From Ruminococcus sp. (GTDB lineage: Bacteria > Bacillota > Clostridia > Oscillospirales > Acutalibacteraceae): a stretch of 64,000 nucleotides of DNA. The stretch covers positions 44,537 through 108,536 of the forward strand of contig JAZNVW010000016.1 in assembly GCA_045593025.1 (NCBI GenBank), read 5' to 3'. The notes below the pieces were generated by a model that made no database searches, had not been told where the DNA came from, and was given only the letters and a program-made list of their open reading frames with translations. Positions 45,268 through 64,000 of the stretch are shown piece by piece. Position 1 is the stretch's first letter. Each line of letters opens with the position of its first letter. A program made the position numbers and the translations under genes.

Positions 45268-46791
45268 TTACTTAATCTTTGCTCCACACGCGAAACAATA
45301 TCCAGAGTTTCTTTTTACAACAGCTCCGCATAAAGGACAAGACTTCATCGATTCTATCGAAGTCCGATCTATCGGTTTCTTCTTATCCTCTGAAGTCGCC
45401 TTAATTACAATTGGTGCTTCTTGATGCTTGTGTGGTATATCTTGTTTTATCTTTACAGTTTTATAACATACACTACAATAACGCTGAGACTTCTGCATAA
45501 TTGCACCACAATATTCGCAGCATACCGTAACATTATTTTGACTACTCGTTGTTTTTATATCAACAACCACTTTATCCTCTACATCTGTTGAGTTATGAGA
45601 AACTTCATCAGTAACCATTGAAGTTTCTGTTTCTATGCTTGTTGAATCTATGTCATCAAGCATAACAACTGTAGTATCTTCTACTTCGGACTCTTCTATT
45701 AACACTGTTTCTTCGTTCTGCTCTGTTTCCTCTAGAAACAAAGTAGCATCCGAGTTATCGTCAGGATGAAGAGCAATCTCATCAGAATCATCGCAATTAA
45801 TTACTATATTTGATATTCTTTCTTTGTCGTTCCCATCTAAAACATCTTTAAGAACACCCACAAGCTCATGAACATTTTGATATCTGTCCTTATATGATAT
45901 AGATAAACCTTTCATGAGAACATTCTCTTGATCAATCGTTATATCAGCATTAAACTTAGATGGTTTTTCTAAGCAATCATCAAAAACTCTCTCCATTGCA
46001 TCGTCTGGTGTTACACCTGTTATACACCTATATATTGTCGCACAGAGAGCATAAATGTCAGTCCAAGGTCCTTGTATCCCCTTTGAACGATACTGTTCTT
46101 CCGGAGCGTAACCTGGTTTTAACATTATTGAAAGACTTCTTCTATCTTCAAAATTAACATCTCTAGCAGCACCGAAATCCATCAGCTTTAATGTACCATC
46201 TTTTAGCAACATAATATTATCTGGACTAATATCTCTATGTATTAACCCTCTATTATGCACCTTTCCAAGAGACTCTAATAATGGCAACATCTTACTGATA
46301 ATATCAGTATAATCAAACACTGAATTCTCTTTAAGATACTCTTTAAGTGTTATTCCATCCACAAACTCCATAACAATATATGCAGTATTATTAGCCTCAA
46401 AGTAATCTCGAACATCAACTATATTTTTATCACCAGAGAATTTCGCAAGCACTCTTGCCTCACTTAAGAATTTACTCTTTCCATTCATAAAATACTCTGA
46501 GTGCTTTGTTCCTGATATCGTTATATCAGAGGTTATTTCCCCATATCTATTCGCATAACCGCTCGGATAGAATTCTTTAACAGCTATTCGCATATCAAGA
46601 TTTAAATCTCTACCAATATATGTAATACCAAAGCCACCTTCACCAAGTGCTTTACCTACCAAATATCTATTATTTAGAATTGTTCCAGGCTTTAGGTGGT
46701 GAGGAGAAGTACTTTCTAAACCTAACTTTTTACAATTCTCGCATACATCTTCATTACACTTGTGCATACAATTGTAGCAATAATTGTCCAT
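45268..46791 (-). CDS. cytoplasmic Hanks-type Ser/Thr kinase flanked by zinc ribbons
   Basis: N-terminal CYNCMHKC..CENC. Kinase motifs are GEGGFGITY, AVKEF, HRDISPDNIML, DFGAA and GYAPEEQ. An acidic linker follows, then two C-terminal CxxC...CxxC ribbons. No TM helix. Confidence 0.9.
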   Translation of the reverse strand: MDNYCYNCMHKCNEDVCENCKKLGLESTSPHHLKPGTILNNRYLVGKALGEGGFGITYIGRDLNLDMRIAVKEFYPSGYANRYGEITSDITISGTKHSEYFMNGKSKFLSEARVLAKFSGDKNIVDVRDYFEANNTAYIVMEFVDGITLKEYLKENSVFDYTDIISKMLPLLESLGKVHNRGLIHRDISPDNIMLLKDGTLKLMDFGAARDVNFEDRRSLSIMLKPGYAPEEQYRSKGIQGPWTDIYALCATIYRCITGVTPDDAMERVFDDCLEKPSKFNADITIDQENVLMKGLSISYKDRYQNVHELVGVLKDVLDGNDKERISNIVINCDDSDEIALHPDDNSDATLFLEETEQNEETVLIEESEVEDTTVVMLDDIDSTSIETETSMVTDEVSHNSTDVEDKVVVDIKTTSSQNNVTVCCEYCGAIMQKSQRYCSVCYKTVKIKQDIPHKHQEAPIVIKATSEDKKKPIDRTSIESMKSCPLCGAVVKRNSGYCFACGAKIK

Positions 46792-46805
46792 ATAAGCACG
46801 CCTCC

Positions 46806-47513
46806 TTAATTCACAAATAAAGCAATTGCCGAATGATTATCATTATTTTCAGGCATCACACGCTCTAACAAAGCTCTCATTTTCTTTAGCCAATCTTGCG
46901 AAGATTTCGAGCTGTTCAACAAACCAATCATTTCTTGTTCAGTAATATTTTCCCAGAAACCATCTGAACACAAAAGCAACGCATCACCTTGTTCCAGAGA
47001 GGAACTGGTCAAATCAACTTTAACCTTCTCTTTACTACCTAAAACTCGAATAAGTTTATTTCGATCCTTATGTCCCCTTATCTGCATTGCGTCAATTTCA
47101 CCCATCAAAACTGCCATTTGCGAGACACTATGATCCGTTGATTGAAATTTTATTGTGCCATTTCTAAAATGATACACCCTGGTATCCCCAACTGTCGCAA
47201 ACAAACAGTTATTTTCTTCTATCCATACGATAGAAATTGTTGTTTTCATTTTATTCTCTTGGTTTTGTTCTAAGATACTCATATTTGCTTTTTCGACAGA
47301 GTCTAAAAGCAACGATTCTGACAAAGGCATATTATGTAAGCAATTATTTATAGTTGTTGTAGCAAGTCTGGATGCAACTTCTCCCGAATCGTATCCACCT
47401 AGTCCATCTGCAACTATTGCCACCAACTGATTGCACCCTTCAATCAGACTCACAAAATCTTCATTATTTTTTCTACCGCCTACCGCTGAGTAGTATGATG
47501 CATCTATATTCAT
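46806..47513 (-). CDS. PP2C-family Ser/Thr phosphatase
   Basis: 235 aa with motifs GGRKNNEDF, VADGLGGYDSGEVAS, LLLCSDGFWE and DNHSAI. Confidence 0.9.
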   Translation of the reverse strand: MNIDASYYSAVGGRKNNEDFVSLIEGCNQLVAIVADGLGGYDSGEVASRLATTTINNCLHNMPLSESLLLDSVEKANMSILEQNQENKMKTTISIVWIEENNCLFATVGDTRVYHFRNGTIKFQSTDHSVSQMAVLMGEIDAMQIRGHKDRNKLIRVLGSKEKVKVDLTSSSLEQGDALLLCSDGFWENITEQEMIGLLNSSKSSQDWLKKMRALLERVMPENNDNHSAIALFVN

Positions 47514-47546
47514 AACATCGTTCCTTGTTTTTTATAGCTATTTAAA

Positions 47547-48356
47547 TCATTTGTTTTTTATAAAAACAGCAACATTGCAATTGTACTTTTCAGAAAGTTC
47601 TCTTTCCATTTCTTCCGCTAACTCGCTTACATATTCATATTTGTCGTTTTCATAATCATCATTAGGAATATTACCATTTTCATCGTATTCAATACCATAT
47701 GAAATTTCAAATACCAAAGAATCGTTAAAAGCTCTCATTCTGTTTATGGCTTTATAATCATAGATAATCTCATAGACATCATCATTAGATGTGTCTAACT
47801 TAACAAAAATGATATTTTTCCATGTTTCCTCAACTATTGAAATAATGTCTTTAGTAATGGTTAATTGATTTTGATCATTTACTGATGAGAAAAACACCTC
47901 TAATTGCTCATCTGATAATCTTTCAATATAGGCATTATTTCTAATACTGATATTGCACCGCCCACAAGATCCAATTTTGCTGTACACTGAAACATCAACT
48001 TGAGGGAAATTGCTTGAATAATCATCAAGTTTCTTTTGAAAGTCGTCAATTGAAGCAATAGAATTAAGATAAAAATTCATAGTTGCTAAATATGCCGCCT
48101 GTATCTTTTGATATTTGCTTTCCTTAATTGTCTCAAAAACAACACCCTTCTTCTTTGCATGATCAATATCATGTCCCAAAGGATAAATGTTATTTGCCTC
48201 GTCTATATCCAACGGAAAAATTTGCAATGTACATATCACATTAGAACTCTCCTTTATACATCCTTTATTGACACTAAAAAATTCTACCATTACACCGAGA
48301 ACAAGAAATAAAATTATAAAACAAAAAACGGTTATTCTAAGTGTAATTCTATTCAT
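47547..48356 (-). CDS. hypothetical N-terminally anchored protein (candidate immunity/accessory protein)
   Basis: 269 aa with one N-terminal TM helix (ITVFCFIILFLVLGVMVEFF). Its start overlaps the stop of the upstream papain-like effector by 4 nt. No family recognised. Confidence 0.4.
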   Translation of the reverse strand: MNRITLRITVFCFIILFLVLGVMVEFFSVNKGCIKESSNVICTLQIFPLDIDEANNIYPLGHDIDHAKKKGVVFETIKESKYQKIQAAYLATMNFYLNSIASIDDFQKKLDDYSSNFPQVDVSVYSKIGSCGRCNISIRNNAYIERLSDEQLEVFFSSVNDQNQLTITKDIISIVEETWKNIIFVKLDTSNDDVYEIIYDYKAINRMRAFNDSLVFEISYGIEYDENGNIPNDDYENDKYEYVSELAEEMERELSEKYNCNVAVFIKNK

Positions 48357-49468
48357 GAGTTATACCTTGATTGCTGAAATTCAATTCTCATATTTTCATC
48401 GAAATCATCAGGATCAATGTAATACGCCCCCCCCCAAGACGAAACCTTATACATTTTTTTCCCATTAATTGTCGAAACACCTGTAATCACCATAGCATGA
48501 CCACCATCACGTGTGTCAACAAGATTTCCTTCATGATTACGAAGTCGCAAAGGACTAATTGCAACAACAATTTCGCCTTGTTCAGACAATTCTTCATAAT
48601 TATCGACTGTTACATCTAAATTAATTATATCAACTTTAATTTTTTTGACTTTTAAATAGTTTTCCCACCTTGTCTCACTGGTTCTTTTTGTTAATCCATA
48701 TGTTTCTCCATCAATTTCACCCTCAACACAATAAAAATCCAACATAACTAAATCATAATTTGGATAACCATTTTCATCGTACATTGAAAACCCAAAATCT
48801 TTTGCAAATAAGTCCTCTCGTCCAATATACTGACCAAAAATGGTATTAACCCAAGCCATATAATTACAGCCTTCACTATTCATTTCCGAAAGCAAATCAG
48901 CAATTCTCTCATCAGGTAATTCCGGAAAATATCTTCTTACAATACTTCGCAATTGATCTCTATCTCCGCGACCCCAACGTCTTGCAGCAGATCCCTGATT
49001 ACCTCCATAATGCAACCCATCATCATGAGTATATGATGGATTGATAAATCCGGTTAATATGTTCTCCAATTTAACCCAAACCGCATCAAAAGTCGTAATG
49101 TTATCTGTTGAAAACCCATTATTGTTTGGGTTGGCTATATTAGATAATATATGTATACACTTATGAAATTGTGTTATTGCTTGTAGTAGAGCATCAAATG
49201 CATTATTATAAGAGGAATCAATAATATTTACATTCGTAAAAATATTTTCAATATTTGACCGAGTGGTATTATTTTTATCAATTACTTTTCTATGATATTC
49301 ATTCACGTTACTTATGTAATTCTTTATATTTAATACTCCTATCCACGACTGAAAATCATACCATCTGTCTCCAAACCAATCAGTAAAATCACTAAGTTTC
49401 TCATTCTCAACTTCCGAAACCATTTGCAGTAATTCACCTTTTGATCTTTCCGAAAAATCCCTATACAT
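48353..49468 (-). CDS. putative T7SS effector: shared N-terminal domain + C-terminal papain-like cysteine peptidase
   Basis: The N-terminal ~115 aa are paralogous to ORF 49533..51065. The C-terminus has NSEGCNYMAW (Cys), DGGHAMVITG (His) and VSSWGG, the order and context seen in papain-fold peptidases. Confidence 0.5.
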   Translation of the reverse strand: MYRDFSERSKGELLQMVSEVENEKLSDFTDWFGDRWYDFQSWIGVLNIKNYISNVNEYHRKVIDKNNTTRSNIENIFTNVNIIDSSYNNAFDALLQAITQFHKCIHILSNIANPNNNGFSTDNITTFDAVWVKLENILTGFINPSYTHDDGLHYGGNQGSAARRWGRGDRDQLRSIVRRYFPELPDERIADLLSEMNSEGCNYMAWVNTIFGQYIGREDLFAKDFGFSMYDENGYPNYDLVMLDFYCVEGEIDGETYGLTKRTSETRWENYLKVKKIKVDIINLDVTVDNYEELSEQGEIVVAISPLRLRNHEGNLVDTRDGGHAMVITGVSTINGKKMYKVSSWGGAYYIDPDDFDENMRIEFQQSRYNS

Positions 49469-49532
49469 GGTTTTTCACATCCAAACATATAACTATTTCT
49501 TTGCCAACGCAACAATCGTCTTAAACGCAAGG

Positions 49533-51065
49533 TTAAATATTAAGCGTTAAATCCTCTAGTCGCTCAATTTCTTCCTCAATTTTTGCTATCATATCTCTCG
49601 TGCATTGTTTATCTTCTGAACTAGCAAAAATCGCACTCACGCTATCCAACGCATTTTCCATAACTGTAATAATTGCTTTGTATTCTTGTATTTTTGCTGC
49701 TTTCGCAAGTTCAAAATATGTTCTACATTGTTCTGCATCATAATTGGAATAATCCCCAGAGTTAACTTTATTTCGATAGTACTCATATTTCTCAACTAAT
49801 CCATAGGAGTATTGCTGTGTAGAATATACACTTCCAATATTGTCTGTAGTATCTGTTAGTCCAATTACCGAAGATGATATATCCTTTGTGTCAATAAACA
49901 AGTCCAACAAAGGCAAGGCTTTATCTATACCCTTATCAATACCCATTTGGGCAAGCTTTTCAATACCATCATGTGCTGCCGATATGTACTGATTGCGATA
50001 TTCCCACAACAAGGAATCCACAACCTTGTTTACAGTTTCGTTATCATATCCTCCATCTATTAACGCTTTTTTTATTGCTTCAAGATACTTCACATCTTCA
50101 GTATAATCATTAAATACTTTAGTAATCATTTGAGTAGAAATGTCATAAATATCAACTGCATCACTATAAGCCCCCAAAGTGCTTTCCACATCTTTGGTCA
50201 TACTTTGAATAAACTGTAAGTTTTCTGATTGACATAACCATTTTAAGTAATCTGACTCTGTTATATCTTTTATGTCAATCTCTAATATTTCTGCTATCTT
50301 TGCCTCAGTAATATCTTCACCCAAATCAAGTGTAAGTCCAATAATCTTCTCACCAATCTTAAATTCTTCTGGTTTTAGTGCTTTTGTGTATTCTTGGGTA
50401 AAATCGGAAGCAACATGCTTATTATCTAAAACTTGTGAAATCAACTCTAAGATACTCTTTTTCACAATTGTCTCATTAACATCATCACCAATATCAAACA
50501 ACAAGCTCGTCATATTCTCAATCCAGTTAGCTGTCCAACCAACAGCTATTGCATCTAAGTCAGTATTACGCGAGTCAATAAATATACCTGTAAAATCAAC
50601 ACCAAGCAATTTGGGGCATACTTCCTCTGTAGGTGCAGTAAAATACTCCATAGACTCAGTAAGGAGTTCGGATAATTCTGCCATGGAATCCGATATAAAC
50701 TCCCCTCTAAAACACCCATTTGACGGATTAACAAGTTGGCACAACTCTTCCATATATCGCTTAATTATGCCAAACTGTGTATTATTCTGCTGTAATATTG
50801 TAGAATATCTACCATCAAGATTAGTAACTGCATTAAATATTCTGCCTATAGTATCTTTTGTCGTGTTGTTCTTATCAATGACTTTTCTATGATACTCATT
50901 AACATTATCAATATAGTTTTTGATATTTAATACACCAATCCACGATTGAAAATCATACCACCTATCTCCAAACCAGTCAGTCAAATCATGGAGTTTCTCA
51001 TTTTCAACATCAGAAACCATTTGAAGCAATGTATTATAGGAATTCTCAGAAAAATCTCTATACAT
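49533..51065 (-). CDS. putative T7SS substrate/effector: shared N-terminal domain + long helical C-terminal region of unknown function
   Basis: 510 aa. The first ~80 aa are about 80% identical to ORF 48353..49468 (MYRDFSE..DWFGDRWYDFQSWIGVLNIKNYI.NVNEYHRKVIDKNNTT). There is no TM helix and no recognised catalytic motif. Confidence 0.5.
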   Translation of the reverse strand: MYRDFSENSYNTLLQMVSDVENEKLHDLTDWFGDRWYDFQSWIGVLNIKNYIDNVNEYHRKVIDKNNTTKDTIGRIFNAVTNLDGRYSTILQQNNTQFGIIKRYMEELCQLVNPSNGCFRGEFISDSMAELSELLTESMEYFTAPTEEVCPKLLGVDFTGIFIDSRNTDLDAIAVGWTANWIENMTSLLFDIGDDVNETIVKKSILELISQVLDNKHVASDFTQEYTKALKPEEFKIGEKIIGLTLDLGEDITEAKIAEILEIDIKDITESDYLKWLCQSENLQFIQSMTKDVESTLGAYSDAVDIYDISTQMITKVFNDYTEDVKYLEAIKKALIDGGYDNETVNKVVDSLLWEYRNQYISAAHDGIEKLAQMGIDKGIDKALPLLDLFIDTKDISSSVIGLTDTTDNIGSVYSTQQYSYGLVEKYEYYRNKVNSGDYSNYDAEQCRTYFELAKAAKIQEYKAIITVMENALDSVSAIFASSEDKQCTRDMIAKIEEEIERLEDLTLNI

Positions 51066-51088
51066 AGCTATCTTCCTTTCATAAACAA

Positions 51089-51358
51089 TTAACCATTCAC
51101 AATCTTGTCTGCGGCTTTGCTATCACTTGAAACATAGCTATCTCGTGTGTTTTGTAAAAACAGGATTGTATTCGACACAAGTTCTCCAAAACAATTATTT
51201 AGGGATTCATACATTGATGCAATCTCCTCTAATTTATTAACAGTTTTACCGCCACCAACAGTAACGGGTGGCGTAGTGCTTACTAAGTCACACCTTGTTT
51301 GCAAGCTTCTTAATCTTCCTATGGAATTATTTATTTCATCAATATTAATATTAATCAT
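51089..51358 (-). CDS. small helical T7SS-associated protein (DUF3130/TIGR04197-like, tentative)
   Basis: 89 aa with a helix, a Gly/Thr-rich turn (TTPPVTVGGGKT), then a second helix. It lies immediately upstream of the effector genes. Confidence 0.4.
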   Translation of the reverse strand: MININIDEINNSIGRLRSLQTRCDLVSTTPPVTVGGGKTVNKLEEIASMYESLNNCFGELVSNTILFLQNTRDSYVSSDSKAADKIVNG

Positions 51359-51378
51359 AGTTCAAAACTCCACCTAAT

Positions 51379-51666
51379 TTAAAATAAGAATTGATCTTCT
51401 ATATCAACACGCGTTAAAAATCCTTCTATTTCTCGTTTCGCATCTCTAGAAACAAGACCAATTTGACTTTTTAGCTGATTAACATATGAAATGTATGTAC
51501 TCAGTGCATTTGAAACTTCGCCGCTCATAATGGCTTTAGCTTTTACTTCTTCTAAAATTTCAACATAATCTACAATAAATGTATCAAGTTGTTCACCCTG
51601 TGACTCGAAATAGGCACCCATACTTCTACAATATTCATCATCAATAATAAGTTCGTTACTAGCCAT
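51379..51666 (-). CDS. small helical T7SS-associated protein
   Basis: The ATG at 51666 follows AAGGAGGGAG. 95 aa, predicted all-helical and acidic. Confidence 0.4.
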   Translation of the reverse strand: MASNELIIDDEYCRSMGAYFESQGEQLDTFIVDYVEILEEVKAKAIMSGEVSNALSTYISYVNQLKSQIGLVSRDAKREIEGFLTRVDIEDQFLF

Positions 51667-51683
51667 AATTCTCCCTCCTTCTT

Positions 51684-52268
51684 TTAAGTTGCATAGCGCA
51701 ATTGGTTTTCCCAATACACTTTACGTTGTCTGCGATAAGACAATTTTGAATTCGTATCATTGAGTTGACTATTACATGAGTTAATATCTCGTCTTGTCCT
51801 ATCTATTTGTCCATTTACAGAATTAATGCGATTATTCAAATCATCTATTTCTCTTTGTATAGATGAAATTTTATTATTAACCACATTAATTGCTGAAGTT
51901 AATCCATTATATGCATGCCTATATTCAGAACCTGATAACAACGACTGCATTCCATTAACATACGATGAAATAAACTTAAGGTTCAGTTGTCTAGAAAAGT
52001 GCACATTAAATCTGCTAATACGTCTAGATTGTCTATCAGCAAACTGTGTCTGTAAATTTTGATACTTACTTTTAAGATGACTTAATTCATCAATTTGATT
52101 TCTTAGTCCACTAATCTGATTCCTCAAACTATCAATTTGTGAATAGCACTGATTCAACTGAGAATTATAAGTATTAATTCTATCATTCAATCTACCAATA
52201 TCTCTTAAATATTGGTTAATTAAATTTTCGTTGTATCGAATATTATTACGAACCTCTTGCTTTGTCAT
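51684..52268 (-). CDS. coiled-coil protein (YwqH/DUF5082-like, tentative)
   Basis: 194 aa with N/Q/R/I-rich heptad repeats at both ends (LNDRINTYNSQLNQCYSQIDSLRNQISGLRNQIDEL; IQREIDDLNNRINSVNGQIDRTRRDINSCNSQL). Confidence 0.45.
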   Translation of the reverse strand: MTKQEVRNNIRYNENLINQYLRDIGRLNDRINTYNSQLNQCYSQIDSLRNQISGLRNQIDELSHLKSKYQNLQTQFADRQSRRISRFNVHFSRQLNLKFISSYVNGMQSLLSGSEYRHAYNGLTSAINVVNNKISSIQREIDDLNNRINSVNGQIDRTRRDINSCNSQLNDTNSKLSYRRQRKVYWENQLRYAT

Positions 52269-52411
52269 CGCTCGCTCCTCCTACAAAGAATTTTAATATA
52301 TAAACTGCACTAAGCAGGTATTTTCTATCTCATATAATTATCTATGGTACATGGCTAAGGCATTGGCAAGTTATATCAACTAATAACTCACCAATGCCAC
52401 CACATGGATTT

Positions 52412-52720: not shown

Positions 52721-52780
52721 AATATTCACCTCCTTATAATTTATTCTATAGGAAATTAGTCTCCGACCAATTTTCTAACA

Positions 52781-55700: not shown

Positions 55701-57295
55701 AAGAATACTATAATATGAGGCGCTTTATCAGCTTGCGAATTTTGTGAACGTTGTGTTAGTTCATTATACAAATAATCGAACGTACGACTCTTACTTTCAT
55801 CGTCAACAGCGATATTTCTATATGATGTTGCTTCGTTATATACATGAGGTAAAAATCTTAACCAACTAATCTTAGGAGCATTTTCTTTTGCAGCTACAAA
55901 GAACAATTGTACATCAGTATAATACTGGCGAGCACAAATATCGATTATTAGGTTCTTCATGATAGAAAAACGACAATCCATATTTCCAATTATACCAATT
56001 GCGTTACTTTCTCGAAACTCACAAACAACGGGTGCATTTTCTAATGCTGAAAATTCCTGAGACACCTGTTGTGGTATTAACTGTAAATCATCTTCAACTT
56101 CTAAGCATTCTTGTTTTTTGTATTCAACATCTCTAGATGGCGTAACGCTACCTAATCCCAATCGCACTTGCAGGAAATCATCATCAAATATTCGTCTATC
56201 AAACAAATCACTAGAATAATCTATGAATCTCGTATACTCCGTTGATATATCTAAATACATCTGTTCTAAAGCTTGTCTTTCTTCATCTCTATATTTAGAT
56301 ATATCCGAACGCTTTCTTTCTATATATTTATTGTATTTTTCTATTCTCTCTTCGTTTTGTTTTTTAAACTCAACCTTATTTTGAATCGCGGTCATAACAG
56401 CTGTTACAATTGCCATTCCTCCAGAAATAAGGCTAAACACCACCATAGTACCGCCCATAGAAGCCATCAAGCCAGACGCCACTAACATACCTAGTGATGG
56501 TAAAAGACTCATCAACAAATTAGATTTTGCTTTTTGCGGTTTTGGAGGCGGATCAAGAACCTCGATTTTATCCGTATTTAAGACTGTCCTAATTCTAGTA
56601 TTACGACTAAATTTCGGATAGTTATTAGGGTTCGGATAATCAGTATAGGATAGTCCGTTTACAAATAAGTCTCCTCTAATTTCTGTCCACAAAATGTCAT
56701 TCTTATAGTAAAAATTAAAATCAGATATTGAGAAAAAATCCCCGTTCTTCACTACGCATCCGCTTATAGCTCTTGAACCATTATAGTAAACACCATATGT
56801 CGCTTTCCTGATTTGCAAATCAAAGCCTTTTGAGGATTTTTGTAATTCTATAACATCATCTTTAACAAAAGCACTCTTAAGCTTCACCTGACAATAATCA
56901 TCTGTTCCTATTCTAATCGAAGAACAACCAACAAGACTAATCGCTCTTTCATACTTAATTTTGCTATTGTTAAAATCAATTAGAAATTCTATTGTGAAAG
57001 CATCTATATTCGATTCTACGTATCTAATCGTAAATAAATCCCCATGCTTTGGAGAAAGTGCCATAAGCTTTCTACTATCTCCTACTGAAAAATAAAAGCT
57101 ATCAGAACACAACAAAGTCCACTCATTATTCTTCTTAATAAAATTAAGTTCAATTGGTTCAAAGAACAAATCTCTGTGTAATCTAAAATCACAACCTACA
57201 CTTGTACCTAATTTCGCTTCATTTTTACCAATAGGCAACTCAAATTCTTTATATAAATTTTTGTTTGATATTATTATTTTATATCTGTACTCCAT
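52781..57295 (-). CDS. essC: type VII secretion FtsK/SpoIIIE-family ATPase EssC
   Basis: 1504 aa with N-terminal FHA-like repeats and two TM helices (LLMSLLPSLGMLVASGLMA.., VVFSLISGGMAIVTAVMTAI). Three P-loop domains are present: GTTGSGKSE with IVDEFAEL, GSAQNGKTN, and the degenerate GKANTGHKN. Confidence 0.95.
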   Translation of the reverse strand: MEYRYKIIISNKNLYKEFELPIGKNEAKLGTSVGCDFRLHRDLFFEPIELNFIKKNNEWTLLCSDSFYFSVGDSRKLMALSPKHGDLFTIRYVESNIDAFTIEFLIDFNNSKIKYERAISLVGCSSIRIGTDDYCQVKLKSAFVKDDVIELQKSSKGFDLQIRKATYGVYYNGSRAISGCVVKNGDFFSISDFNFYYKNDILWTEIRGDLFVNGLSYTDYPNPNNYPKFSRNTRIRTVLNTDKIEVLDPPPKPQKAKSNLLMSLLPSLGMLVASGLMASMGGTMVVFSLISGGMAIVTAVMTAIQNKVEFKKQNEERIEKYNKYIERKRSDISKYRDEERQALEQMYLDISTEYTRFIDYSSDLFDRRIFDDDFLQVRLGLGSVTPSRDVEYKKQECLEVEDDLQLIPQQVSQEFSALENAPVVCEFRESNAIGIIGNMDCRFSIMKNLIIDICARQYYTDVQLFFVAAKENAPKISWLRFLPHVYNEATSYRNIAVDDESKSRTFDYLYNELTQRSQNSQADKAPHIIVFFYDECGFQTHPLSNYVNKLKDLAATFVFMAEEKSKIPQGCSQLIFVDSYNKGRLVNSNNQDDTVDFTYNGISDEDAKKIVNLLAPIFTEEISLEGALTKNISLFEMFGILMVDDLNLDQRWANSKVFQSMAAPIGVTKTGIISLDLHDKAHGPHGLVAGTTGSGKSEILQTYILSIATIFHPYEVAFVIIDFKGGGMANQFKDLPHMLGAITNIDGKEIDRSLKSIKAELQKRQRLFAEAEVNHIDKYIQKYKAGKVSVPIPHLVLIVDEFAELKAEQPEFMKELISAARIGRSLGVHLILATQKPSGQVDEQIWSNSKFKLCLKVQSQEDSNEVIKSPLAAEIKEPGRAYLQVGNNEVFELFQSAYSGAPEKMAEAEIKEFALFEVSAAGKRTPIYVQKKKKTSGSVFTQLESIVEYVHNYCGVKGISRLPNICLPSLPKHIEYSKANMKKNSLIGLGIYDDPDNQIQGVASMDFDNKNTFVLGSAQNGKTNILQSLIRTIASTSSPKESTIYILDFGSMVLKNFENLNHVGGVVCSSDDEKLKNMFKLLFSEILTRKERLVSVGVSSYSSYVEAGYSDLPHIYLMIDNLTALIELYLADDDSLLNILREGLSVGISTIVTNSQTTGIGYRYLSNFANKMALCCNDTSEYSALFDHVTLKPDEVPGRCILEVDKRILECQTYLAFEGEKEYARVQQMQEFVININDKYIGIKAKQIPYIPTVLTMDAIKYEFDAQSEGYKVPVGLTYQDVEPYYLDISQLGIIGLCGKANTGHKNFLAYLFDVLESNIETNPAKVVLFDDVTRKLECFKESKLVTTYSLGVDKVTDIIQEWHSVLTERYNTLIENGSINGNSELLLMIIQNNDVAKKISEDYSILDMFNDIVSRFKGMNVAIIFSNYSNSSVSYDAPEPIRTVKQEQHLLFFEDLDNLKPFDVPYEDIRNNRKRLEVGDAYYIHDNNVVKLKLVKAKEQPDS

Positions 57296-57306: not shown

Positions 57307-57561
57307 TTATTCCGTGTAATAAATAACACTTCCATTACGAATTCCATATTCCTTTAGCGTTTTGTTACCTCTAAGAAGTGCTATTGGATTTTCAGATTTC
57401 AAATAGCATTTCTTAATGTCTGTTGTATCGATATTCAGTCTATAAGCCGTATTAAGTCCAATCACCAACTCTGTTGCAGTTATATCAAGTGGCACTTCAA
57501 TATCAACACTGGTATTATTCTTAGCGTTATTAAAAATCACAATTGCTTTATCATTATTCAT
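57307..57561 (-). CDS. esaB: YukD/EsaB ubiquitin-like T7SS protein
   Basis: 84 aa: VDIEVPLDITATELVIGLNTAY...TLKEYGIRNGSVIY fits the beta-grasp YukD pattern. It lies directly upstream of essC. Confidence 0.8.
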   Translation of the reverse strand: MNNDKAIVIFNNAKNNTSVDIEVPLDITATELVIGLNTAYRLNIDTTDIKKCYLKSENPIALLRGNKTLKEYGIRNGSVIYYTE

Positions 57562-57572
57562 ATATATACCCC

Positions 57573-58631
57573 TTAAATAATCAAATAGGCAATTTTTTGT
57601 ATATCTTTATCGTTTGATAAATCGTTAATAGATATATCATCATAAGCGGAGTAGTGTCCTATATAATCAACAACACTGTATTTTTTATTAATCGCAGGAG
57701 AGATCAAATAATTAGGTGCATCATCAACAAAGTTATTACACACAAAAATAAACTTATCACTCGTAACCCCATTCAAATTCGATACTAGTAGATTTGTTGC
57801 TTTTACCGAATACTTGCTCTGTGAAGTAACAACAACAACTTTATCTGCTATATCAATCAAACGAACTTGTTCCTCATCAAATGCCGACTCTACATCAATT
57901 ACTATACAATCGTATTCACCGCTGTTTTTTGCAGAAACAGCAATGTTTTCATACACACTAAAATCTATGCCATAAGACATCAACGCCGTTTTAAAGGGTG
58001 GTAAATAGCTAAACTCTTCTTTTCTCACCACATGCTTGATTGCCGAGTATATATTAGTGTTTTCCATTGTCAATTTTGCATACACATCCGAAGCTGCAAT
58101 TGGCTCTTGATTCACAAGCAAAGACTGAAAACATTGCAGTCTTGCGGCATTTATATACAGAACTCTTTTATAATTCTTACTCAAATACGAACAAATACCA
58201 AGTGCAACAGTAGTTTTACCTACACCTCCGGAAGCCGAGCATACGAGTGCTATCTGCGTTTCCTTGTGTTCAACATCCTGCAATTCTAACGAGGATGAAC
58301 CTTTTCCGCTAATAACATTAAAAATCTCTTTAAGACTTGTATATTTATATATAAATGTTATATTTGATGGTTTTTCTATTTGCTGTGAAGGTTGTTCAGT
58401 CATAACAAAGATATTACCTATATTATGTAAACTAAGCGATGAAGAGTATAACTCTTCAGAAACAACCAAAATATCTACTTTTTGAGGAGCAGAAAAAACT
58501 TCATCAAAAAAAATCCTATCGGTTATTATTTCTAAATCAATATTATCATAATATTTTTCTATAAATCGTTGCTGCAAAGGTATTATGTACTTACTATCAG
58601 TATCAGCAATAATAATTCTTGGATTAACCAT
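57573..58631 (-). CDS. CpaE/TadZ-like protein: receiver-like N-domain + ParA/MinD-class ATPase
   Basis: The N-terminus (RIIIADTDSKYI...VDILVVSEELY) has a CheY-like topology. The Walker A is IALVCSASGGVGKTTVALG and the Walker B-like motif is CIVIDVES. Confidence 0.7.
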   Translation of the reverse strand: MVNPRIIIADTDSKYIIPLQQRFIEKYYDNIDLEIITDRIFFDEVFSAPQKVDILVVSEELYSSSLSLHNIGNIFVMTEQPSQQIEKPSNITFIYKYTSLKEIFNVISGKGSSSLELQDVEHKETQIALVCSASGGVGKTTVALGICSYLSKNYKRVLYINAARLQCFQSLLVNQEPIAASDVYAKLTMENTNIYSAIKHVVRKEEFSYLPPFKTALMSYGIDFSVYENIAVSAKNSGEYDCIVIDVESAFDEEQVRLIDIADKVVVVTSQSKYSVKATNLLVSNLNGVTSDKFIFVCNNFVDDAPNYLISPAINKKYSVVDYIGHYSAYDDISINDLSNDKDIQKIAYLII

Positions 58632-58647: not shown

Positions 58648-59565
58648 TTATCCAATAATAACTTTAAACTCACTGTTGGCAAGTCGAACGATATCACCAT
58701 TTTTAATCAAAAAGATTTCACCTGACGACACTCTTTCTCCATTAATATAGGTTCCATTAACACTGCCTAAATCTGTAATACTATACCTACCGTTATGTTG
58801 CATTATTTTGCAATGTGAGCGACTTATCATTTTGTTATAAGGAACAACTCCATCTACAACGCCTTGCTTTTTACCTATAGTAAATTCATCTTTAGTAACA
58901 TATATTTCAAGAGGAAATGAAGGATTCAATGAAACTAACTTCATAACCATATTCTCTCTTACAACATCATCAGATTTATTGCCACCCTTAGAATCTGCAA
59001 AACCAGCAGTTTTTACTTTATTATAAAGATTTTCTAACGATATCAATCCATTTGACAAATCAGCAGCTAATTGAAAAGTCTGAGACGATGATAATGAAGG
59101 TATATTCTGAATAAGTTTTATCAAATTTGAGCGTAGTGTATTCTCAAATGAAGCAGTATCAACAAACAATCTTTTTGTTATAGGCAGATAAACCAATCCA
59201 ATTTTATAAGTTGCAGGATCAAAATATATTTGATTTAAGGAAAGATCTATGTTCTGACAAGATAAAAAACCATTACTTTTAACTGAAATTATGTCATCAA
59301 GCAAATTCTTTACAATATTTAAAAAAGTTTTAGAATCTAAAGAATACAAAACACTTTCAAGAGACTTATATCCATCGGTTAAATAATAAAGCTGAACTTT
59401 CCCATTAAACAATGCTTTTACACATTTAATAAATGTGCCGTCCTCCTGGCTTTGCAGAACTTTATACTCAGTTAAAGAAAAAATGTCATTTTCATTTATC
59501 ACATAAGCAAAATTTTCACCACACACCATTTCGCTCAAGACACCATTTTCAACTAAAACATTCAC
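58648..59565 (-). CDS. FHA-domain protein with an uncharacterised ~190-aa N-terminal domain
   Basis: The C-terminus (FTIGKK...ISRSHCKIMQHNGRYSITDLGSVNGTYINGERV) is a canonical FHA domain with the R/S/H/N core residues. The N-domain is not recognised, and there is no TM helix. Confidence 0.85.
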   Translation of the reverse strand: MNVLVENGVLSEMVCGENFAYVINENDIFSLTEYKVLQSQEDGTFIKCVKALFNGKVQLYYLTDGYKSLESVLYSLDSKTFLNIVKNLLDDIISVKSNGFLSCQNIDLSLNQIYFDPATYKIGLVYLPITKRLFVDTASFENTLRSNLIKLIQNIPSLSSSQTFQLAADLSNGLISLENLYNKVKTAGFADSKGGNKSDDVVRENMVMKLVSLNPSFPLEIYVTKDEFTIGKKQGVVDGVVPYNKMISRSHCKIMQHNGRYSITDLGSVNGTYINGERVSSGEIFLIKNGDIVRLANSEFKVIIG

Positions 59566-59640
59566 TAAGAATACCCCCTAAACCATTAAGCTGTTTATCA
59601 CAAGTTAAACTGTAAGAGCTTATAATTTAACTTCTAATAA

Positions 59641-59680
59641 ACAAATCTTTCCTCCCGTGCAGAGTAAATCTGCACGGGAG
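59641..59680 (-). terminator. putative (possibly partial) terminator after the PASTA kinase gene
   Basis: 11-bp stem CTCCCGTGCAG/CTGCACGGGAG. The downstream minus-strand tail GAAAGATTTGTTTATT is only moderately T-rich. Confidence 0.5.
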
Positions 59681-59712
59681 ACAAACATGTTAATCCAATT
59701 AGAAACACATAA

Positions 59713-62700
59713 TCAACCAGAATATTTAAACTGTGCTATCCAACCCCATTTTCCGTTATAATTTATGTATCCCCAAATGTAAGTTCCATCCCAATAGTTT
59801 CCATATACCGACAATGTTACACCTTGTCCTACCGTACCAAGCGAAGAATAACCGGTTCCCGCTCCAGAACGAATATTATAAGTTGTATTAGTTGTAAATG
59901 ATGGACTCTTAACCGTAACCCTACATTGAGCAGTATTTCCATTGTATGTCGTTACAGTTAAGTATGCGATATTAGAAGAAGTTGCAGTGGAAGATGTTGA
60001 ATCTGTTCCAACCGCACACACAACTCCACTACCATCCCACACATTGCCTTTTACATAAATTATTTTATTATCACTTGAGGACAGGCTCAATGAATGAGGT
60101 CTGTATACAGACGCACTATATGTTGCTTTTTGTGTTCCATTTAAATAAACATAAACAGATGCTGTCTTTGTTGTGTTATAGTCTATCAAACAAGGTGTTA
60201 CAGTAATAGTTGCTACATTACCACTTTGACTAACAGACGTTGTCACTACACTTGTATTACTACTAGAGGCAGTAACTTTGGTTGCAGAGGAATTTGTTGT
60301 AACTGTAAATTTCTTAGGTGTGCGATCCCATGAATGACTTACAGAGATACTAACCTCTTCACCAACATATACTGTACTTGAATAATCTGTTATTTCGATT
60401 CCAGTGTCAAGCACCTTGAATGAACCACTATAACTACTCATACTAACAATACTGTCGTTGCTTACACTAACAGTAAATGTCGTTGTTTTGCCTCCGTAAC
60501 TAACTGTAATTGTTTTTGTTCCGGAGGAAGAGAACCCACCTGTTGGCGAACAACTAAATCCGTTTGAAATTGTCTTTGTGGAACCATTATTATATTTAGC
60601 TGTTAATGTCAAACCTGAATCATTAAATGATTCGCCCACATAATACGAAGTCTTTGATGGTTTACTCTTAACTGTAATTGACGACAACTCAAGCTTTGAT
60701 ACAGATACAGTGAATGTTGTTGTTTTACCTTCATAAGTAACTGTAATTGTTTTAGTACCTGAAGAAGATAACGATGTTGGTGAACAACTGAATCCACTTG
60801 AAATTGTCTTAGATGTACCATTATTGTATTTAACAGTTAATGATAAACCCGAAGTGTTAAGCGTATCGCCTTCATAATACGAAGTTTTTGTAGGTCCACT
60901 CTTAACCGAAATAGAGGAAACAACCACATCTTCCACATACACTGTGAATGTTGTTGTCTTTCCTTCATAAGAAACCGTGATTGTTTTTGTACCTGATGAA
61001 GACAATGTTGTTGGTGAACAGCTAAAACCACTTGTTATGGTTTTTGTCGTTCCGTTGTTACACTTAACAGTTAGAGATAATCCGGATGTATTAAGTGTTT
61101 CACCCTTATAGTAGGATGTCTTTGTAGGTTTGTTATTAACTGATATAGAAGTAGGCTCAACCTTCTCAACATTAACTGTAAATGTTGTCGTAAATCCTTC
61201 ATAAGAAACCGTGATTGTTTTTGTACCTGATGAAGACAATGTTGTCGGCGAACAACTAAAACCACTTGTTATAGTTTTTGTTGTTCCATTGTTATACTTA
61301 ACACTCAAAGACAAACCAGAAGTATTAAGAGAATCCCCTTCATAGTAGGATGTCTTTGTAGGTTTGTTTTGAATACTTATAGAAATAGGATCTACTGATT
61401 TAACATTAACTGAAAATGTTGTTGTTTTACCATTGTAAGTTACTGTAATTGACTTTGTACCAGACGAAGATAACTTTGTTGGTGTGCAACTAAAACCAGT
61501 TGTAACAATTTTTGTTGTTCCATTATTATATGTTTCTGTTAAAGTCAATCCAGATGTATCGAGTGTATCACCCACATAATAAGATGTTTTTGAGGGATTA
61601 CTCTTAACAGATATATATGCTGGAAGAACTTTCTCAACGTTAACTGTAAACTTTGTTGTTTTACCCTCGTAACTTACCGAAATCGTCTGTGTTCCGGACG
61701 CCGTTAAAGTTGTCGGAGAGCAAGTAAAATCATTGAAAATAGTTTTTGAAGTTCCATCATTATATTTTGCAACAAGCGATAAACCTGATGCATTTAATGT
61801 ATCTCCCACAAAATAATCTGTTATACTAGGCTCTGTTCTAACTGAAATTTCAGTCACTACTATTTTAGTCCAATGAGCATACAAGGTTTGCGAAGAAGTG
61901 ATTTCTACCTTTGACGATGATGTAATATTAGAACCGCCACTCGCAGAGGTATACCAACCATCAAAGATGTAACCACTTCTTATAGGTGTTGGCAATGTTC
62001 CGTATGTAGATGCATATACAACATTTTTACTTGATGTCGCTACACTACCACCATTTGCATTAAAGGTTACTGTATATCCCTTTTCACTCCAGTGAGCATA
62101 CAAGGTTTGATTGCCTGCTGTTGTATACTTTGATTCCGAAAGGATTTCAGTTCCGCCGCTCGCCGATGTATACCATCCAACAAATGTATATCCTGAACGA
62201 CTAACAGTTTCAAGGTCACCATATTTTGACCCATAAGAAACTTTCTTAGATGAGGGTGCTGCTCCACCACCATTTGTATTAAAAGACACTGTATATTCAT
62301 TAGCCGTCCATTGGGCATACAATGTATGGCTTGAAGGAGTTGTTACGATTGTACTTGAGGTAACCTTAACACCGCCTGACTTAGCGGAATACCAACCTTT
62401 AAATGAATATCCTTCTCTTTCAGGAGTAGGAAGCTCGCCATAACCTTCATTCAAATAAAGCGTATTACTGCCGTTGCTAACAGAACCTCCATTAGCATTA
62501 AAAGAAACGTTAATGGGCTGTTTTCCTTTGCTCACATATATAATAATTGTTGAATTCGGCAACTGAGCTGTGCCAGCCTTTGGCGACTGACTAATAACCT
62601 TACCTGCGGCAACTGTAGAATCATAGTTTTCCAGCACTGTTACTTTAAATCCTTGTCCCTTAAGAATACTAGTGGCATCAGATTCGGATTTTCCTACTAC

Positions 62701-64000
62701 ATTTGCTACATCAATTGTTTCACGTCCACTTGAAACAGTAAGCGTTATTTCGTCTCCTCGCTTTACTGCTGTTCCTAACGCTGTACTCTGACTAATAATT
62801 TTTCCTTCTTCTACGTTATCCGTCTTTTTGTATTCAACATAAACAACTAAACCTTTGCTTGTAAGCATAGCTTCTGCACTCTCTAAGCTATCTCCTACAA
62901 CATCGGGCATTTCGAATGCTGATGGGCCAAGAGAAATGGTCAGAGTGATTTTTGTGCCTTCCTCAACTTCATCTCCCGCATTAATACTCTGTGCAATTAC
63001 AGAACCCAACGCAACATTATCATCGTATTTTTCTACGATTTCAGGCTCTGAAAGTCCAGCTTTAAGCAACTTTGCAATCGCATCATCTTTTGAATCCCAG
63101 ATTACATACGGAACTGTGGAGACTCCATTTTCTGGCGATACAACATCCTTACCACTACTTACCATAAGTTCAACGGTTCCATTGATATCCATATAAGAAC
63201 CACCAACCGGAGTTTGGAGTATTATCTTTCCGGCAGGAATGTATTCTGATTCTATGGTTCCTTCTGCTGATGCAAGGAGTTGTCCTTCTTCAATTAATTC
63301 AAGTGCTTCATCCTTGTATAAACCTTCTACTTCCGGAACTACCACAATGCCCTCGGGAATTACAATCTCTTGAGTAAACTTTGAAAAATTAATAACACCA
63401 GTAACAAGCAAAAGTCCCAAGCAAACGATTATTACTAAAAGCGAAGGAATTAAAATCTTCAACCATAACGGCCAACTTAATCTGTCAATCAATTTAATTT
63501 TGCCATATATTCGTTTGGGTGGTGTTGGCGAAGTTAACTCTTGAATAAACGCTTCAATAGTTGGAGTTCTATCTTCAATTCTCACATTCAAAGCATTCAA
63601 GATAGCATTTTCACGAGATTTAGAAATCCCCTTGTTAAGCTTATGCGGATTAACCAAAACATCAGTACGCTTTGTTTCGTACTTAACACGCCTTTCCATC
63701 GCATCGGGAGGCGTTTCCCCTGTGACCATCCTGTATAATGTAGCAGCAAGAGAGTAAACATCCGTATGAGGGCCGTGGTCTCCCCTGCTTCTATATTGTT
63801 CTTCTGGTGAATATCCCTGCTTAATTACTACAGTCAAGCTTCTGCTGTGTGAAGTTGTCGCATAGCGAGAAGCACCAAAGTCTATGAGTTTAATCTCGCC
63901 ATCATCTGTAAGGAATATGTTATCGGGTGCAATATCCCTATGTAATATGCCCTCTGCATGAACAGCCTGTAATGATTCCATGACAGGCATCAGCATAGCT
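59713..64000 (-). CDS. PASTA-type Hanks Ser/Thr kinase (5' end outside window) with a greatly extended ectodomain
   Basis: The window starts mid-kinase (HRDIAPDNIFL, DFGAS, GYSPEEQ) and one TM helix follows (WLKILIPSLLVIIVCLGLLLV). About 4 PASTA units follow. Then come 3 Listeria-Bacteroides-type repeats (NANGGS...GY.F.GWY...LYA.W), 6 Ig-like repeats, a further beta-rich region and a C-terminal SH3b-like domain (YNIRSGAGTGYSSLG..). Confidence 0.9.
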   Translation of the reverse strand, partial: AMLMPVMESLQAVHAEGILHRDIAPDNIFLTDDGEIKLIDFGASRYATTSHSRSLTVVIKQGYSPEEQYRSRGDHGPHTDVYSLAATLYRMVTGETPPDAMERRVKYETKRTDVLVNPHKLNKGISKSRENAILNALNVRIEDRTPTIEAFIQELTSPTPPKRIYGKIKLIDRLSWPLWLKILIPSLLVIIVCLGLLLVTGVINFSKFTQEIVIPEGIVVVPEVEGLYKDEALELIEEGQLLASAEGTIESEYIPAGKIILQTPVGGSYMDINGTVELMVSSGKDVVSPENGVSTVPYVIWDSKDDAIAKLLKAGLSEPEIVEKYDDNVALGSVIAQSINAGDEVEEGTKITLTISLGPSAFEMPDVVGDSLESAEAMLTSKGLVVYVEYKKTDNVEEGKIISQSTALGTAVKRGDEITLTVSSGRETIDVANVVGKSESDATSILKGQGFKVTVLENYDSTVAAGKVISQSPKAGTAQLPNSTIIIYVSKGKQPINVSFNANGGSVSNGSNTLYLNEGYGELPTPEREGYSFKGWYSAKSGGVKVTSSTIVTTPSSHTLYAQWTANEYTVSFNTNGGGAAPSSKKVSYGSKYGDLETVSRSGYTFVGWYTSASGGTEILSESKYTTAGNQTLYAHWSEKGYTVTFNANGGSVATSSKNVVYASTYGTLPTPIRSGYIFDGWYTSASGGSNITSSSKVEITSSQTLYAHWTKIVVTEISVRTEPSITDYFVGDTLNASGLSLVAKYNDGTSKTIFNDFTCSPTTLTASGTQTISVSYEGKTTKFTVNVEKVLPAYISVKSNPSKTSYYVGDTLDTSGLTLTETYNNGTTKIVTTGFSCTPTKLSSSGTKSITVTYNGKTTTFSVNVKSVDPISISIQNKPTKTSYYEGDSLNTSGLSLSVKYNNGTTKTITSGFSCSPTTLSSSGTKTITVSYEGFTTTFTVNVEKVEPTSISVNNKPTKTSYYKGETLNTSGLSLTVKCNNGTTKTITSGFSCSPTTLSSSGTKTITVSYEGKTTTFTVYVEDVVVSSISVKSGPTKTSYYEGDTLNTSGLSLTVKYNNGTSKTISSGFSCSPTSLSSSGTKTITVTYEGKTTTFTVSVSKLELSSITVKSKPSKTSYYVGESFNDSGLTLTAKYNNGSTKTISNGFSCSPTGGFSSSGTKTITVSYGGKTTTFTVSVSNDSIVSMSSYSGSFKVLDTGIEITDYSSTVYVGEEVSISVSHSWDRTPKKFTVTTNSSATKVTASSSNTSVVTTSVSQSGNVATITVTPCLIDYNTTKTASVYVYLNGTQKATYSASVYRPHSLSLSSSDNKIIYVKGNVWDGSGVVCAVGTDSTSSTATSSNIAYLTVTTYNGNTAQCRVTVKSPSFTTNTTYNIRSGAGTGYSSLGTVGQGVTLSVYGNYWDGTYIWGYINYNGKWGWIAQFKYSG
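60463..61851 (-). repeat. six tandem ~231-bp (77-aa) Ig-like coding repeats inside the kinase gene
   Basis: Repeat unit is ..ISVKS.PSKTSYY.GD.L.TSGL.LT.KYNNGT.KTI.SGFSCSPT.LSSSGTKTITV.YEGKTTTFTV.V. Echo ORFs appear in another frame at 60609-61265. Confidence 0.8.

Follow-up and report, generated by a model that had tools for sequence, protein, structure and literature searches.

At the end of a 64,000-nucleotide stretch of Ruminococcus sp. contig JAZNVW010000016.1 (the whole stretch is referred to below as the window), the minus strand carries what is probably a complete and functional type VII secretion system (T7SS), one that is not of the T7SSb kind, is closest to the published subtype T7SSf, and lies on a low-GC (guanine plus cytosine) island beside a large serine recombinase. 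The individual steps of the mechanism proposed for it are held with lower confidence than this overall identity. The locus, at 45268-64000, consists of 14 open reading frames (ORFs), all co-directional and separated by intergenic gaps of 11-147 bp (Table 1). ORFs were identified by profile searches against Pfam and NCBIfam, and membrane helices by a hydropathy scan, which returned one helix in the Hanks-type kinase K1, two in EssC and one N-terminal helix in a 269-aa protein, with none in any other protein of the locus. An earlier note on this DNA, made from the letters alone, had listed these genes in order, and the profiles confirmed every one of them on the minus strand. The terminator which it placed at 45208-45252 is likewise real, and folds with a low energy before a U-run; a consensus terminator scan made no call there, probably because the plain 8-bp stem opens into a 13-nt loop, above the limit of that scan. 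Since the ORFs are all intact, tightly spaced and syntenic with those of relatives, we rejected the reading of the locus as pseudogenes or a remnant. A Tad pilus locus was also ruled out, the TadZ-like ATPase being the sole such part and sited between T7SS genes.

EssC, YukD and the WXG100 protein are bona fide by profile. EssC has two N-terminal FHA-like domains, two membrane helices (residues 260-278 and 286-304) and three FtsK-like ATPase domains; Pfam marks two FtsK_SpoIIIE stretches, and the Walker A motif is canonical at residues 690 and 1016 and degenerate in the third domain. The membrane-bound FtsK/SpoIIIE-type ATPase with three ATPase domains that is general to T7SSs is therefore present, and the WXG100 gene stands beside it, 51 bp downstream of essC. 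YukD is the ubiquitin-like protein shared with T7SSb, and it is 100% identical in a sister strain, represented by the Logan contig L001. The gene for the TadZ-like ATPase lies between the FHA-protein gene and yukD, so that a receiver plus P-loop ATPase of the TsfV type is flanked by T7SS genes. Its best sequence match in the PDB was 3fkq (E 1.4e-12, over residues 5-275, which cover both domains), with MinD and Soj proteins ranking lower. 3fkq is the Eubacterium rectale TadZ structure, which we take to be the one cited by the 2024 T7SS survey. The Walker A motif of the ATPase reads SASGGVGKTT, and the signature lysine of MinD/ParA is thus missing. We found 1344 homologues of this ATPase at E ≤ 1e-5, nearly all of exactly 352 aa; it is 99% identical in L001.

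Table 1. Features of the T7SS locus and of the adjoining island, in window coordinates.
Feature	Coordinates	Strand	Evidence and remarks
K1, Hanks-type Ser/Thr kinase	59713-64000	-	Pfam/NCBIfam; N-terminus cut by the window end
FHA protein (DUF6382 + FHA)	58648-59565	-	Pfam; 305 aa; no membrane helix
V, TadZ-like two-domain ATPase	57573-58631	-	Pfam AAA_31 + CbiA; receiver-like N-domain + ParA/MinD P-loop
B, YukD/EsaB ubiquitin-like protein	57307-57561	-	PF08817 39.5 bits (cut-off 27)
C, EssC translocase ATPase	52781-57295	-	TIGR03928 1134 bits (cut-off 778)
A, WXG100 (EsxA-like) protein	52412-52729	-	PF06013 55 bits; TIGR03930 59 bits
194-aa coiled-coil partner protein, YwqH-like	51684-52268	-	PF16888 29.3 bits, below cut-off 33.7
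Small helical partner protein	51379-51714	-	Listed ORF 111 aa, orthologues 95-102 aa; no Pfam/NCBIfam match
89-aa DUF5344-like partner protein	51089-51358	-	PF17279 24.7 bits, below cut-off 27
510-aa candidate secreted effector	49533-51065	-	N-domain common with the 371-aa protein; remainder all-helical; no family match
371-aa candidate secreted toxin	48353-49468	-	Common N-terminal domain (putative targeting) + C-domain with invariant Cys and His
269-aa candidate immunity protein	47547-48356	-	One N-terminal helix, residues 6-24; no family match
F, PP2C/PPM Ser/Thr phosphatase	46806-47513	-	PF13672 55.7 bits; DGLGG + SDGFW motifs
K2, soluble Hanks-type kinase	45268-46791	-	Pkinase 113 bits + DZR; N-terminal Zn ribbon, C-terminal double Zn ribbons
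Intrinsic terminator closing the operon	45208-45256	-	Fold -20 kcal/mol, z = -5.6, then U-run
ImmA/IrrE-like M78 protein	44267-44875		
Sigma-70 region-4 protein	43257-43739		
DinG-like helicase	40565-43018		
Large serine recombinase	38647-40266		Resolvase, Recombinase and Zn_ribbon_recom domains

Garrett, Higginson & Palmer (Microlife 2024; PMC11217815), referred to here as the 2024 survey, described in silico eight further Bacillota arrangements, T7SSc-j, from EssC phylogeny and gene neighbourhood, and were less confident on the components of T7SSf-j. T7SSf, which occurs in several Clostridia, has six parts, namely a WXG100 protein, YukD, TsfC (an EssC whose FHA domains retain only part of the phosphothreonine motif), the PPM phosphatase TsfF, TsfJ (which carries DUF6382 and FHA domains and two membrane helices) and TsfV (a TadZ-like receiver plus P-loop ATPase), and no kinase linked to it was found by the authors (PMC11217815). 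The window likewise has a WXG100 protein, YukD, an EssC with N-terminal FHA domains, a PPM phosphatase within the cluster, a DUF6382-FHA protein and a TadZ-like ATPase, and, as in the T7SSf loci of Clostridium acetobutylicum and C. felsineum, its substrate, partner-protein and immunity genes are found downstream of essC. The proposal of the earlier note that this was the best candidate for a new system was thereby overtaken, since the published T7SSf has the same six core parts. Some features of the window nevertheless differ from T7SSf: its FHA protein is soluble and of 305 aa, compared to the 468 aa and two membrane helices of TsfJ, to which its FHA region is 38% identical, and its operon contains two kinases with intact motifs. 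Most related loci differ further by adding a TsxI-like protein of ~2000 aa and small membrane proteins.

In T7SSe and T7SSj the survey lists a kinase (TsxD), a phosphatase, a cytoplasmic DUF6382-FHA protein, a large Ig-like (immunoglobulin-like) protein (TsxI) and small single-pass proteins, and no TadZ-like ATPase (PMC11217815). The window shares with these subtypes a membrane Ser/Thr kinase, a PPM phosphatase and a cytoplasmic DUF6382-FHA protein, while most of its relatives also share the small single-pass proteins and the large protein, which bears a signal at the N-terminus and an anchor at the C-terminus. A separate TsxI, TsxH or TsxK is however absent from the window, and its EssC neither clusters with TseC or TsjC nor retains the phosphothreonine pocket which the EssC FHA domains of T7SSe and T7SSj keep. 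In the window the pocket residues are replaced by Thr, Lys, Val and Tyr; across the related loci the pocket Arg, Ser, His and Asn of FHA2 are never present, and the Asn-to-Tyr change, which forms a Tyr-Gly motif, is common to the related loci and TsfC.

Six representative TsxC sequences were rebuilt from optical character recognition (OCR) text of Figure S2 of the survey; they include one TsfC and carry OCR noise. The window EssC aligned with TsfC over its full length at 33-34% identity and 761 bits, making TsfC the best representative, compared to at most 545 bits for TsiC, S. aureus EssC, TseC, TsjC and TsdC. All 71 related EssCs also scored best against TsfC. Identity of the window EssC was 28% to S. 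aureus EssC, 28% to TseC and 26% to TsjC. In a trimmed alignment TsfC was 31-35% identical to the related EssCs, whose internal minimum was 39%; the named subtypes are 21-36% identical in EssC between each other, with 36% for TsfC-TsiC. TsfC was placed as sister to the related loci, not inside them, in a neighbour-joining tree that contained the one OCR-derived TsfC and carried no support values. None of nine RefSeq EssC accessions of the related loci was present in the lists of Supplementary Data 5 of PMC11217815, which were checked by tool for six and by eye for three; the window EssC has no accession of its own. The related loci appear to be uncatalogued in the survey, and they look like a mosaic of a T7SSf-like core and a T7SSe/j-like upstream module. 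The earlier note was right to see a departure from the characterised T7SSb, given the negative EsaA, EssA and EssB profiles and the low identity to S. aureus EssC, but a system of this kind had already been published.

That the locus has no recognisable EsaA, EssA or EssB, as first noticed from the letters, was borne out by Pfam and NCBIfam profiles for EsaA, EssA and EssB/YukC, which gave zero matches both among the window ORFs and in the conserved neighbour families within 10 kb of 80 related loci. No large polytopic protein of the EsaA/YueB kind was found in the window or among these neighbours. A small EssA/YueC-like membrane protein was found neither by profile nor as a small membrane ORF in the intergenic gaps of the locus. 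EssB/YukC, which joins a pseudokinase to a membrane helix and an extracellular domain, has no such counterpart in the window, the FHA protein being free of membrane helices. The genes upstream of K1 in the closest relatives encode kinases, FHA proteins and PP2C, with no EsaA, EssA or EssB there.

The FHA protein was further examined by structure prediction. Since a fold search with the whole AlphaFold model (predicted local distance difference test, pLDDT, 75.6) returned only FHA domains from the PDB, its N-terminal domain was modelled alone. The model of residues 1-195 had a predicted template modelling (TM) score of 0.72, and its best Foldseek match was 6z0f, YukC/EssB (E 2e-5, TM 0.58), followed by 9qks_C, a 221-residue chain of the B. 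subtilis T7b core unit whose length agrees with the resolved YukC pseudokinase domain as described in PMC12637312. The N-domain of TraF (8cba) was also among the top matches, with eukaryotic-type kinases ranking after; TraF is reported to be a structural homologue of EssB/YukC. The earlier note had stated that no ORF has the architecture of EssB and that an FHA protein simply takes its place. No EssB profile matches indeed, but the N-domain is EssB-like in its predicted fold; the simple replacement has to be given up, since the DUF6382 domain models as a pseudokinase with YukC/EssB as its top solved-structure matches. The DUF6382 component is probably a detached, soluble EssB-like pseudokinase fused to an FHA domain, in a relation that the models place at the level of fold only. 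The supplement of PMC11217815 gives 'protein kinase domain' Foldseek matches for TsfJ, and the text of that paper does not link TsxJ to EssB. In the T7SSb system, FHA2 of YukB is the docking site of the YukC pseudokinase, a contact that YukD stabilises (PMC12637312). The FHA domain of the window protein retains S248, R249, H251, N270, G271 and T272, and the protein gave a weak NCBIfam match to the type VI secretion system (T6SS) FHA protein TagH. Its homologues numbered 585.

Conservation was examined in a scan restricted to one genome per species, which yielded 80 loci, the best match being 60% identical. Their hosts are Lachnospiraceae, Oscillospiraceae, Acutalibacteraceae and Clostridium (folliculivorans, nigeriense and polynesiense), with a few Bacilli (Ornithinibacillus, Niallia, Rossellomorea and Alloiococcus). 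By ORF clustering, the order FHA protein, ATPase, YukD, EssC was kept in 77/79, 65/72 and 55/55 testable loci. A gene order not conserved in related genomes would have spoken against the system proposed by the earlier note; its recurrence in ~80 species-level genomes shows instead that the arrangement is real and conserved, far beyond chance. Upstream modules were counted in the 54 loci whose upstream sequence extends for ≥9 kb. Most loci encode there a second, longer DUF6382-FHA protein (48-62% identical to the FHA region of TseJ), two small membrane proteins (one of 170 aa and single-pass, one of 160 aa and multi-pass) and the ~2000-aa protein, as well as a PP2C and a membrane kinase. A large protein lies directly upstream of the FHA protein in 46 of the 54, belonging to one cluster (cluster 4) in 41, and 40 have a kinase in the 10 kb upstream. 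The ~2000-aa protein has no Pfam or NCBIfam match; it is hydrophobic around residue 13 and again ~9 residues before the C-terminus, which is the topology given for TsxI.

Two further observations were made among these loci. A second sub-architecture was seen at L007:15853-20723, L049:16085-21060 and L030:15967-19672, where a different gene set stands between essC and the WXG100 gene; it encodes a WXG100-like 110-aa protein, a 138-aa protein, a ~476-aa protein and 190-aa proteins with two membrane helices each, and a 440-aa TPR protein, with family assignments for TPR and WXG100 only. Separately, firmicute-type T7SS contigs occurred in metagenome-assembled genomes labelled Gastranaerophilales, Muribaculaceae, Bacteroides and Bacteroidales (L003, L020, L021, L061 and L081), and RefSeq assigns one EssC, WP_289698725, to Bacteroides acidifaciens. 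These labels are probably due to mis-binning or contamination, not to real transfer to Bacteroidota.

K1 occupies the slot in which most relatives encode the ~2000-aa envelope protein. The term PASTA kinase used for it in the earlier note was correct as to the kinase and its PASTA repeats, but fell short of what is really a ~1600-aa protein with a very large Ig-rich ectodomain. The kinase motifs HRD, DFG and SPE are present, a single membrane helix spans residues 181-199 of the visible part, and the ectodomain of ~1200 aa comprises 4 PASTA, 3 Flg_new and 6 Big_3 domains with a weak SH3_3 match; the topology of orthologues suggests that ~170 N-terminal residues lie beyond the window end. In L004, L009 and L001 an orthologue of K1 immediately precedes the FHA protein, and the window, L004 and L009 form a sub-branch with this kinase in the large-protein slot. 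The orthologues at L004:4772-8929 and L009:3889-8922 have the core of kinase, PASTA, Flg_new and Big_3 in common with K1, and differ at the distal tip, which is made of BspA-type LRR_5 repeats in L004 and of Big_3 repeats with SH3_3 in L009 and the window. The variability of the tip resembles that of adhesins. Upstream of K1 in L004, L009 and two metagenome relatives (L083 and L108) are a PP2C, an FHA protein and another kinase, and a metagenome scan with the N-terminal part of K1 returned relatives at ≤80% identity that also have FHA proteins and kinases upstream.

The second kinase, K2, has intact G-loop, VAVK, HRD, DFG and APE motifs and no membrane helix, and belongs to a kinase cluster (cluster 5) that is found upstream in 37/54 loci. 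The phosphatase gene is at the 3' end of the locus in both the window and L001, where the products are 95% identical; K2 lies just past it in the window, and L001 stops at it. Against the Stp1-like model the phosphatase scored 166 bits, below the equivalog cut-off of 230, and K1 scored 255 bits against the Stk1 cut-off of 450. On human-gut metagenome contigs L091-L103, genes for a PP2C and a second PP2C-like protein accompany those for a kinase and a PASTA kinase that is 49% identical to K1, and within 10 kb downstream no FHA protein, ATPase, YukD or EssC was found; the multi-kinase module hence also exists on its own.

Downstream of the WXG100 gene lies the predicted cargo module. The 194-aa partner protein is kept at the same position in 15/51 loci, the 111-aa ORF belongs to a conserved cluster (cluster 12) found in 12/51 loci, and orthologues of the 89-aa protein in L001 and L002 carry an unmarked PF17279 match. 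The two candidate effectors were rightly described as paralogous by the earlier note: they are 58% identical over the first 142 aa (E 2e-43), and their C-termini are unrelated. This N-domain recurs after small helical genes in ~20 loci with varied C-termini. In having a common N-domain, unrelated C-termini and small helical partner genes upstream, the effectors are LXG-like in behaviour. The C-domain of the 371-aa toxin (48353-49051) has 35 homologues, all of ~370 aa, with an invariant Cys in EGCxYMA and an invariant His in GGHAMVITG; no Pfam match and no PDB sequence match was obtained for it, and our guess is that it may be a new Cys-His hydrolase toxin. The 269-aa protein does bear the single membrane anchor that the earlier note had assigned to it, is a singleton cluster unique among 82 loci, and is thus consistent with variable cargo. 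It is predicted to face outward from its N-terminal anchor, which would fit immunity against a wall-acting toxin.

Comparison with the sister strain (L001:3715-11768 versus window 47514-57295) indicated how this cargo may change. The end of K1, the FHA protein, the ATPase, YukD and residues 1-200 of EssC are 97-100% identical; EssC itself is 97-99% identical over residues 1-200 and thereafter a mosaic at 51-92%. At the DNA level similarity ends within essC and returns at the PP2C gene, and between these points L001 carries other partner proteins and another effector, of 404 aa, with a 152-aa neighbour. Between the sister strains, the effector module is exchanged as one unit together with the 3' part of essC, in the manner of polymorphic T7SS toxin loci. 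This is the swapping of essC variants along with their effector modules that is reported for S. aureus and Listeria.

A mechanism can be proposed from these parts. EssC would be the ATP-driven channel, and its N-terminal FHA-like domains, since they have lost the phosphothreonine-binding residues, would act as phospho-independent docking sites for YukD and the pseudokinase-like DUF6382 domain. By analogy, EssC, YukD and DUF6382 would copy the YukB-YukC-YukD core unit of B. subtilis, the EssB-like module being soluble. The FHA domain of the FHA protein would read threonine phosphorylation, for which the two Hanks kinases would be the writers and PP2C the eraser; with reader, kinases and phosphatase in one operon, assembly or firing may be gated by phosphorylation. 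Through an ectodomain made of PASTA and Ig-like domains, K1 would detect the cell wall or a neighbouring cell, and the TadZ-like ATPase would position or nucleate the machine. Its cargo would be the two polymorphic toxins with their common LXG-like N-domain, escorted by the three small helical partners, with the 269-aa anchored protein as the putative immunity factor for the 371-aa toxin. Threonine-phosphorylation control of the T6SS (PpkA, PppA and Fha) offers an analogy, having a membrane Hanks kinase, a PP2C and an FHA adaptor in a secretion operon; the T6SS is nonetheless an unrelated machine of the Gram-negative envelope, and the likeness would be functional only.

Several points weigh against this reading of the locus as a complete, T7SSf-like system and against the mechanism proposed for it. 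The window ends at base 64000, and other membrane components may exist upstream or elsewhere in the genome; most relatives have the ~2000-aa envelope protein and small membrane proteins that are absent from the window. The EssB-like fold comes from a medium-confidence model (pLDDT 75, residues 1-26 below 50) that superposes with a root-mean-square deviation of 6.6 Å at 12% identity, and a sequence profile of the DUF6382 domain found no kinase and no EssB in the PDB. The FHA domain that would read phosphothreonine has a Lys at the canonical FHA Arg position. Neither effector matched the LXG domain PF04740 at E ≤ 0.1, and the family matches of the partner proteins (YwqH-like and DUF5344) fall below threshold. 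Kinase and PP2C modules similar to this one also occur without T7SS genes downstream. Finally, the evidence is computational, and a literature search found no experimental work on T7SSe, f or j or on T7SS in Lachnospiraceae.

Among other explanations, it is very improbable that the locus is an ordinary T7SSb with EsaA, EssA and EssB encoded beyond base 64000 or at another site in the genome. Such a system is favoured by the window ending inside the first gene of the locus, by profile scans that covered the window and the surroundings of related loci rather than whole genomes, and by EssC passing the Firmicutes EssC equivalog model. It also shares with the window, in the S. aureus Ess and B. 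subtilis Yuk/Yue systems, an EssC with two FHA domains free of phosphothreonine-binding residues, YukD/EsaB, a single WXG100 protein, polymorphic toxins with small helical partners and immunity genes, swapping of the essC 3' part with the effector module, and a pseudokinase-fold module encoded beside essC. However, the three proteins are unmatched within 10 kb of the 80 loci as well as in the window, in the closest relatives the K1 orthologue is preceded by genes for FHA proteins, PP2C and kinases, and EssC is nearer to TsfC than to S. aureus EssC. The slot of EssB is filled by a protein with a predicted EssB-like fold that lacks membrane and extracellular portions and continues into an FHA domain, and the window adds a TadZ-like ATPase, two kinases and PP2C. 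Moreover, the T7SS of B. anthracis, the starting point of the survey, works without EsaA, EssA and EssB (PMC11217815). We consider it quite doubtful, if less so, that the kinases and the phosphatase are general envelope signalling genes (PrkC/Stp-like) which flank a minimal T7SS by chance. PASTA kinases paired with PP2C are usually housekeeping, the L091-L103 module has no T7SS core within 10 kb, and PP2C and K2 sit at the 3' end of the window locus, past the variable cargo. Set against this are the Stk1 and Stp1 equivalog scores, both below cut-off, the linkage in 40/54 loci across families, the K1 orthologues directly upstream of the FHA protein in three loci, the placement of all genes on one strand with short gaps and a single terminator, and the FHA reader domain that is built into a core component.

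A third explanation makes the locus a plain member of T7SSf, with nothing new, its differences being variation within the class that went unseen in the 22 TsfC sequences of the survey. This is unlikely in our view. In its favour, the locus has the full set of six T7SSf components, every related EssC scores highest against TsfC among the representatives, the FHA2 Tyr-Gly motif is held in common, and the components of T7SSf-j were those of which the authors were less sure. The identity of TsfC to the related EssCs lies below their internal minimum and in the range reached between named subtypes, and TsfC falls outside the related loci in the neighbour-joining tree, subject to the limits of that tree given above. 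TsfJ differs from the window protein in length and membrane helices, the published T7SSf has no kinase compared to 40/54 loci with a kinase and 46/54 with a large envelope protein here, and the nine RefSeq EssC accessions are missing from the lists of the paper. A tentative alternative, which we rate somewhat higher and still as less than even, is that of an uncatalogued subtype widespread in gut Clostridia, in which a soluble pseudokinase-FHA adaptor serves as EssB, a TadZ-like ATPase places the machine, and, in this sub-branch, a Hanks kinase whose giant PASTA and Ig ectodomain ends in a variable adhesin-like tip replaces the envelope-spanning protein of the TsxI/EsaA type.

The surroundings of the T7SS locus agree with the AT-rich accessory block next to a serine recombinase that the earlier note had described. 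Housekeeping genes, including those for PEPCK, TsaD, a pyrophosphatase and MatE and SNF transporters, extend to ~38 kb, and the GC content falls from 0.42 to 0.33 exactly at the serine recombinase. From the recombinase and this fall, the locus was judged to lie on an acquired island, and 38647-45211 has the look of one end of such an integrated element. The recombinase, helicase, sigma-like and M78 genes have no counterpart beside the 80 loci, and were ruled out as a conserved mobile-element context. Outside the island, 28395-34388 on the minus strand encodes a 1165-aa protein with AAA_2 (Clp-like), AAA and Peptidase_M41 (FtsH-like) domains, followed by an 829-aa ORF without a Pfam match, an unusual double-AAA FtsH-like pair.

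T7SS toxins influence how Gram-positive bacteria compete with one another, and mechanistic work has dealt nearly entirely with T7SSa and T7SSb. The 2024 survey, by describing other Bacillota architectures, already removes the surprise of a T7SS without EsaA, EssA and EssB. The architecture described here is common in gut Lachnospiraceae, Oscillospiraceae and Clostridium (>1300 ATPase homologues, ~80 species-level genomes), is seemingly absent from that survey, and joins parts which the survey assigned to three separate subtypes. The DUF6382 protein, if it is EssB-like as is probable, would offer a concrete and testable model of how the EssC core unit is built and how it is coupled to Ser/Thr phosphorylation. 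Should the uncatalogued-subtype reading prove true, the firing of toxins would be switched on directly by sensing of the cell wall or of a neighbour. Together, these findings extend current views of the T7SS instead of overturning them, and raise a tractable regulatory question.

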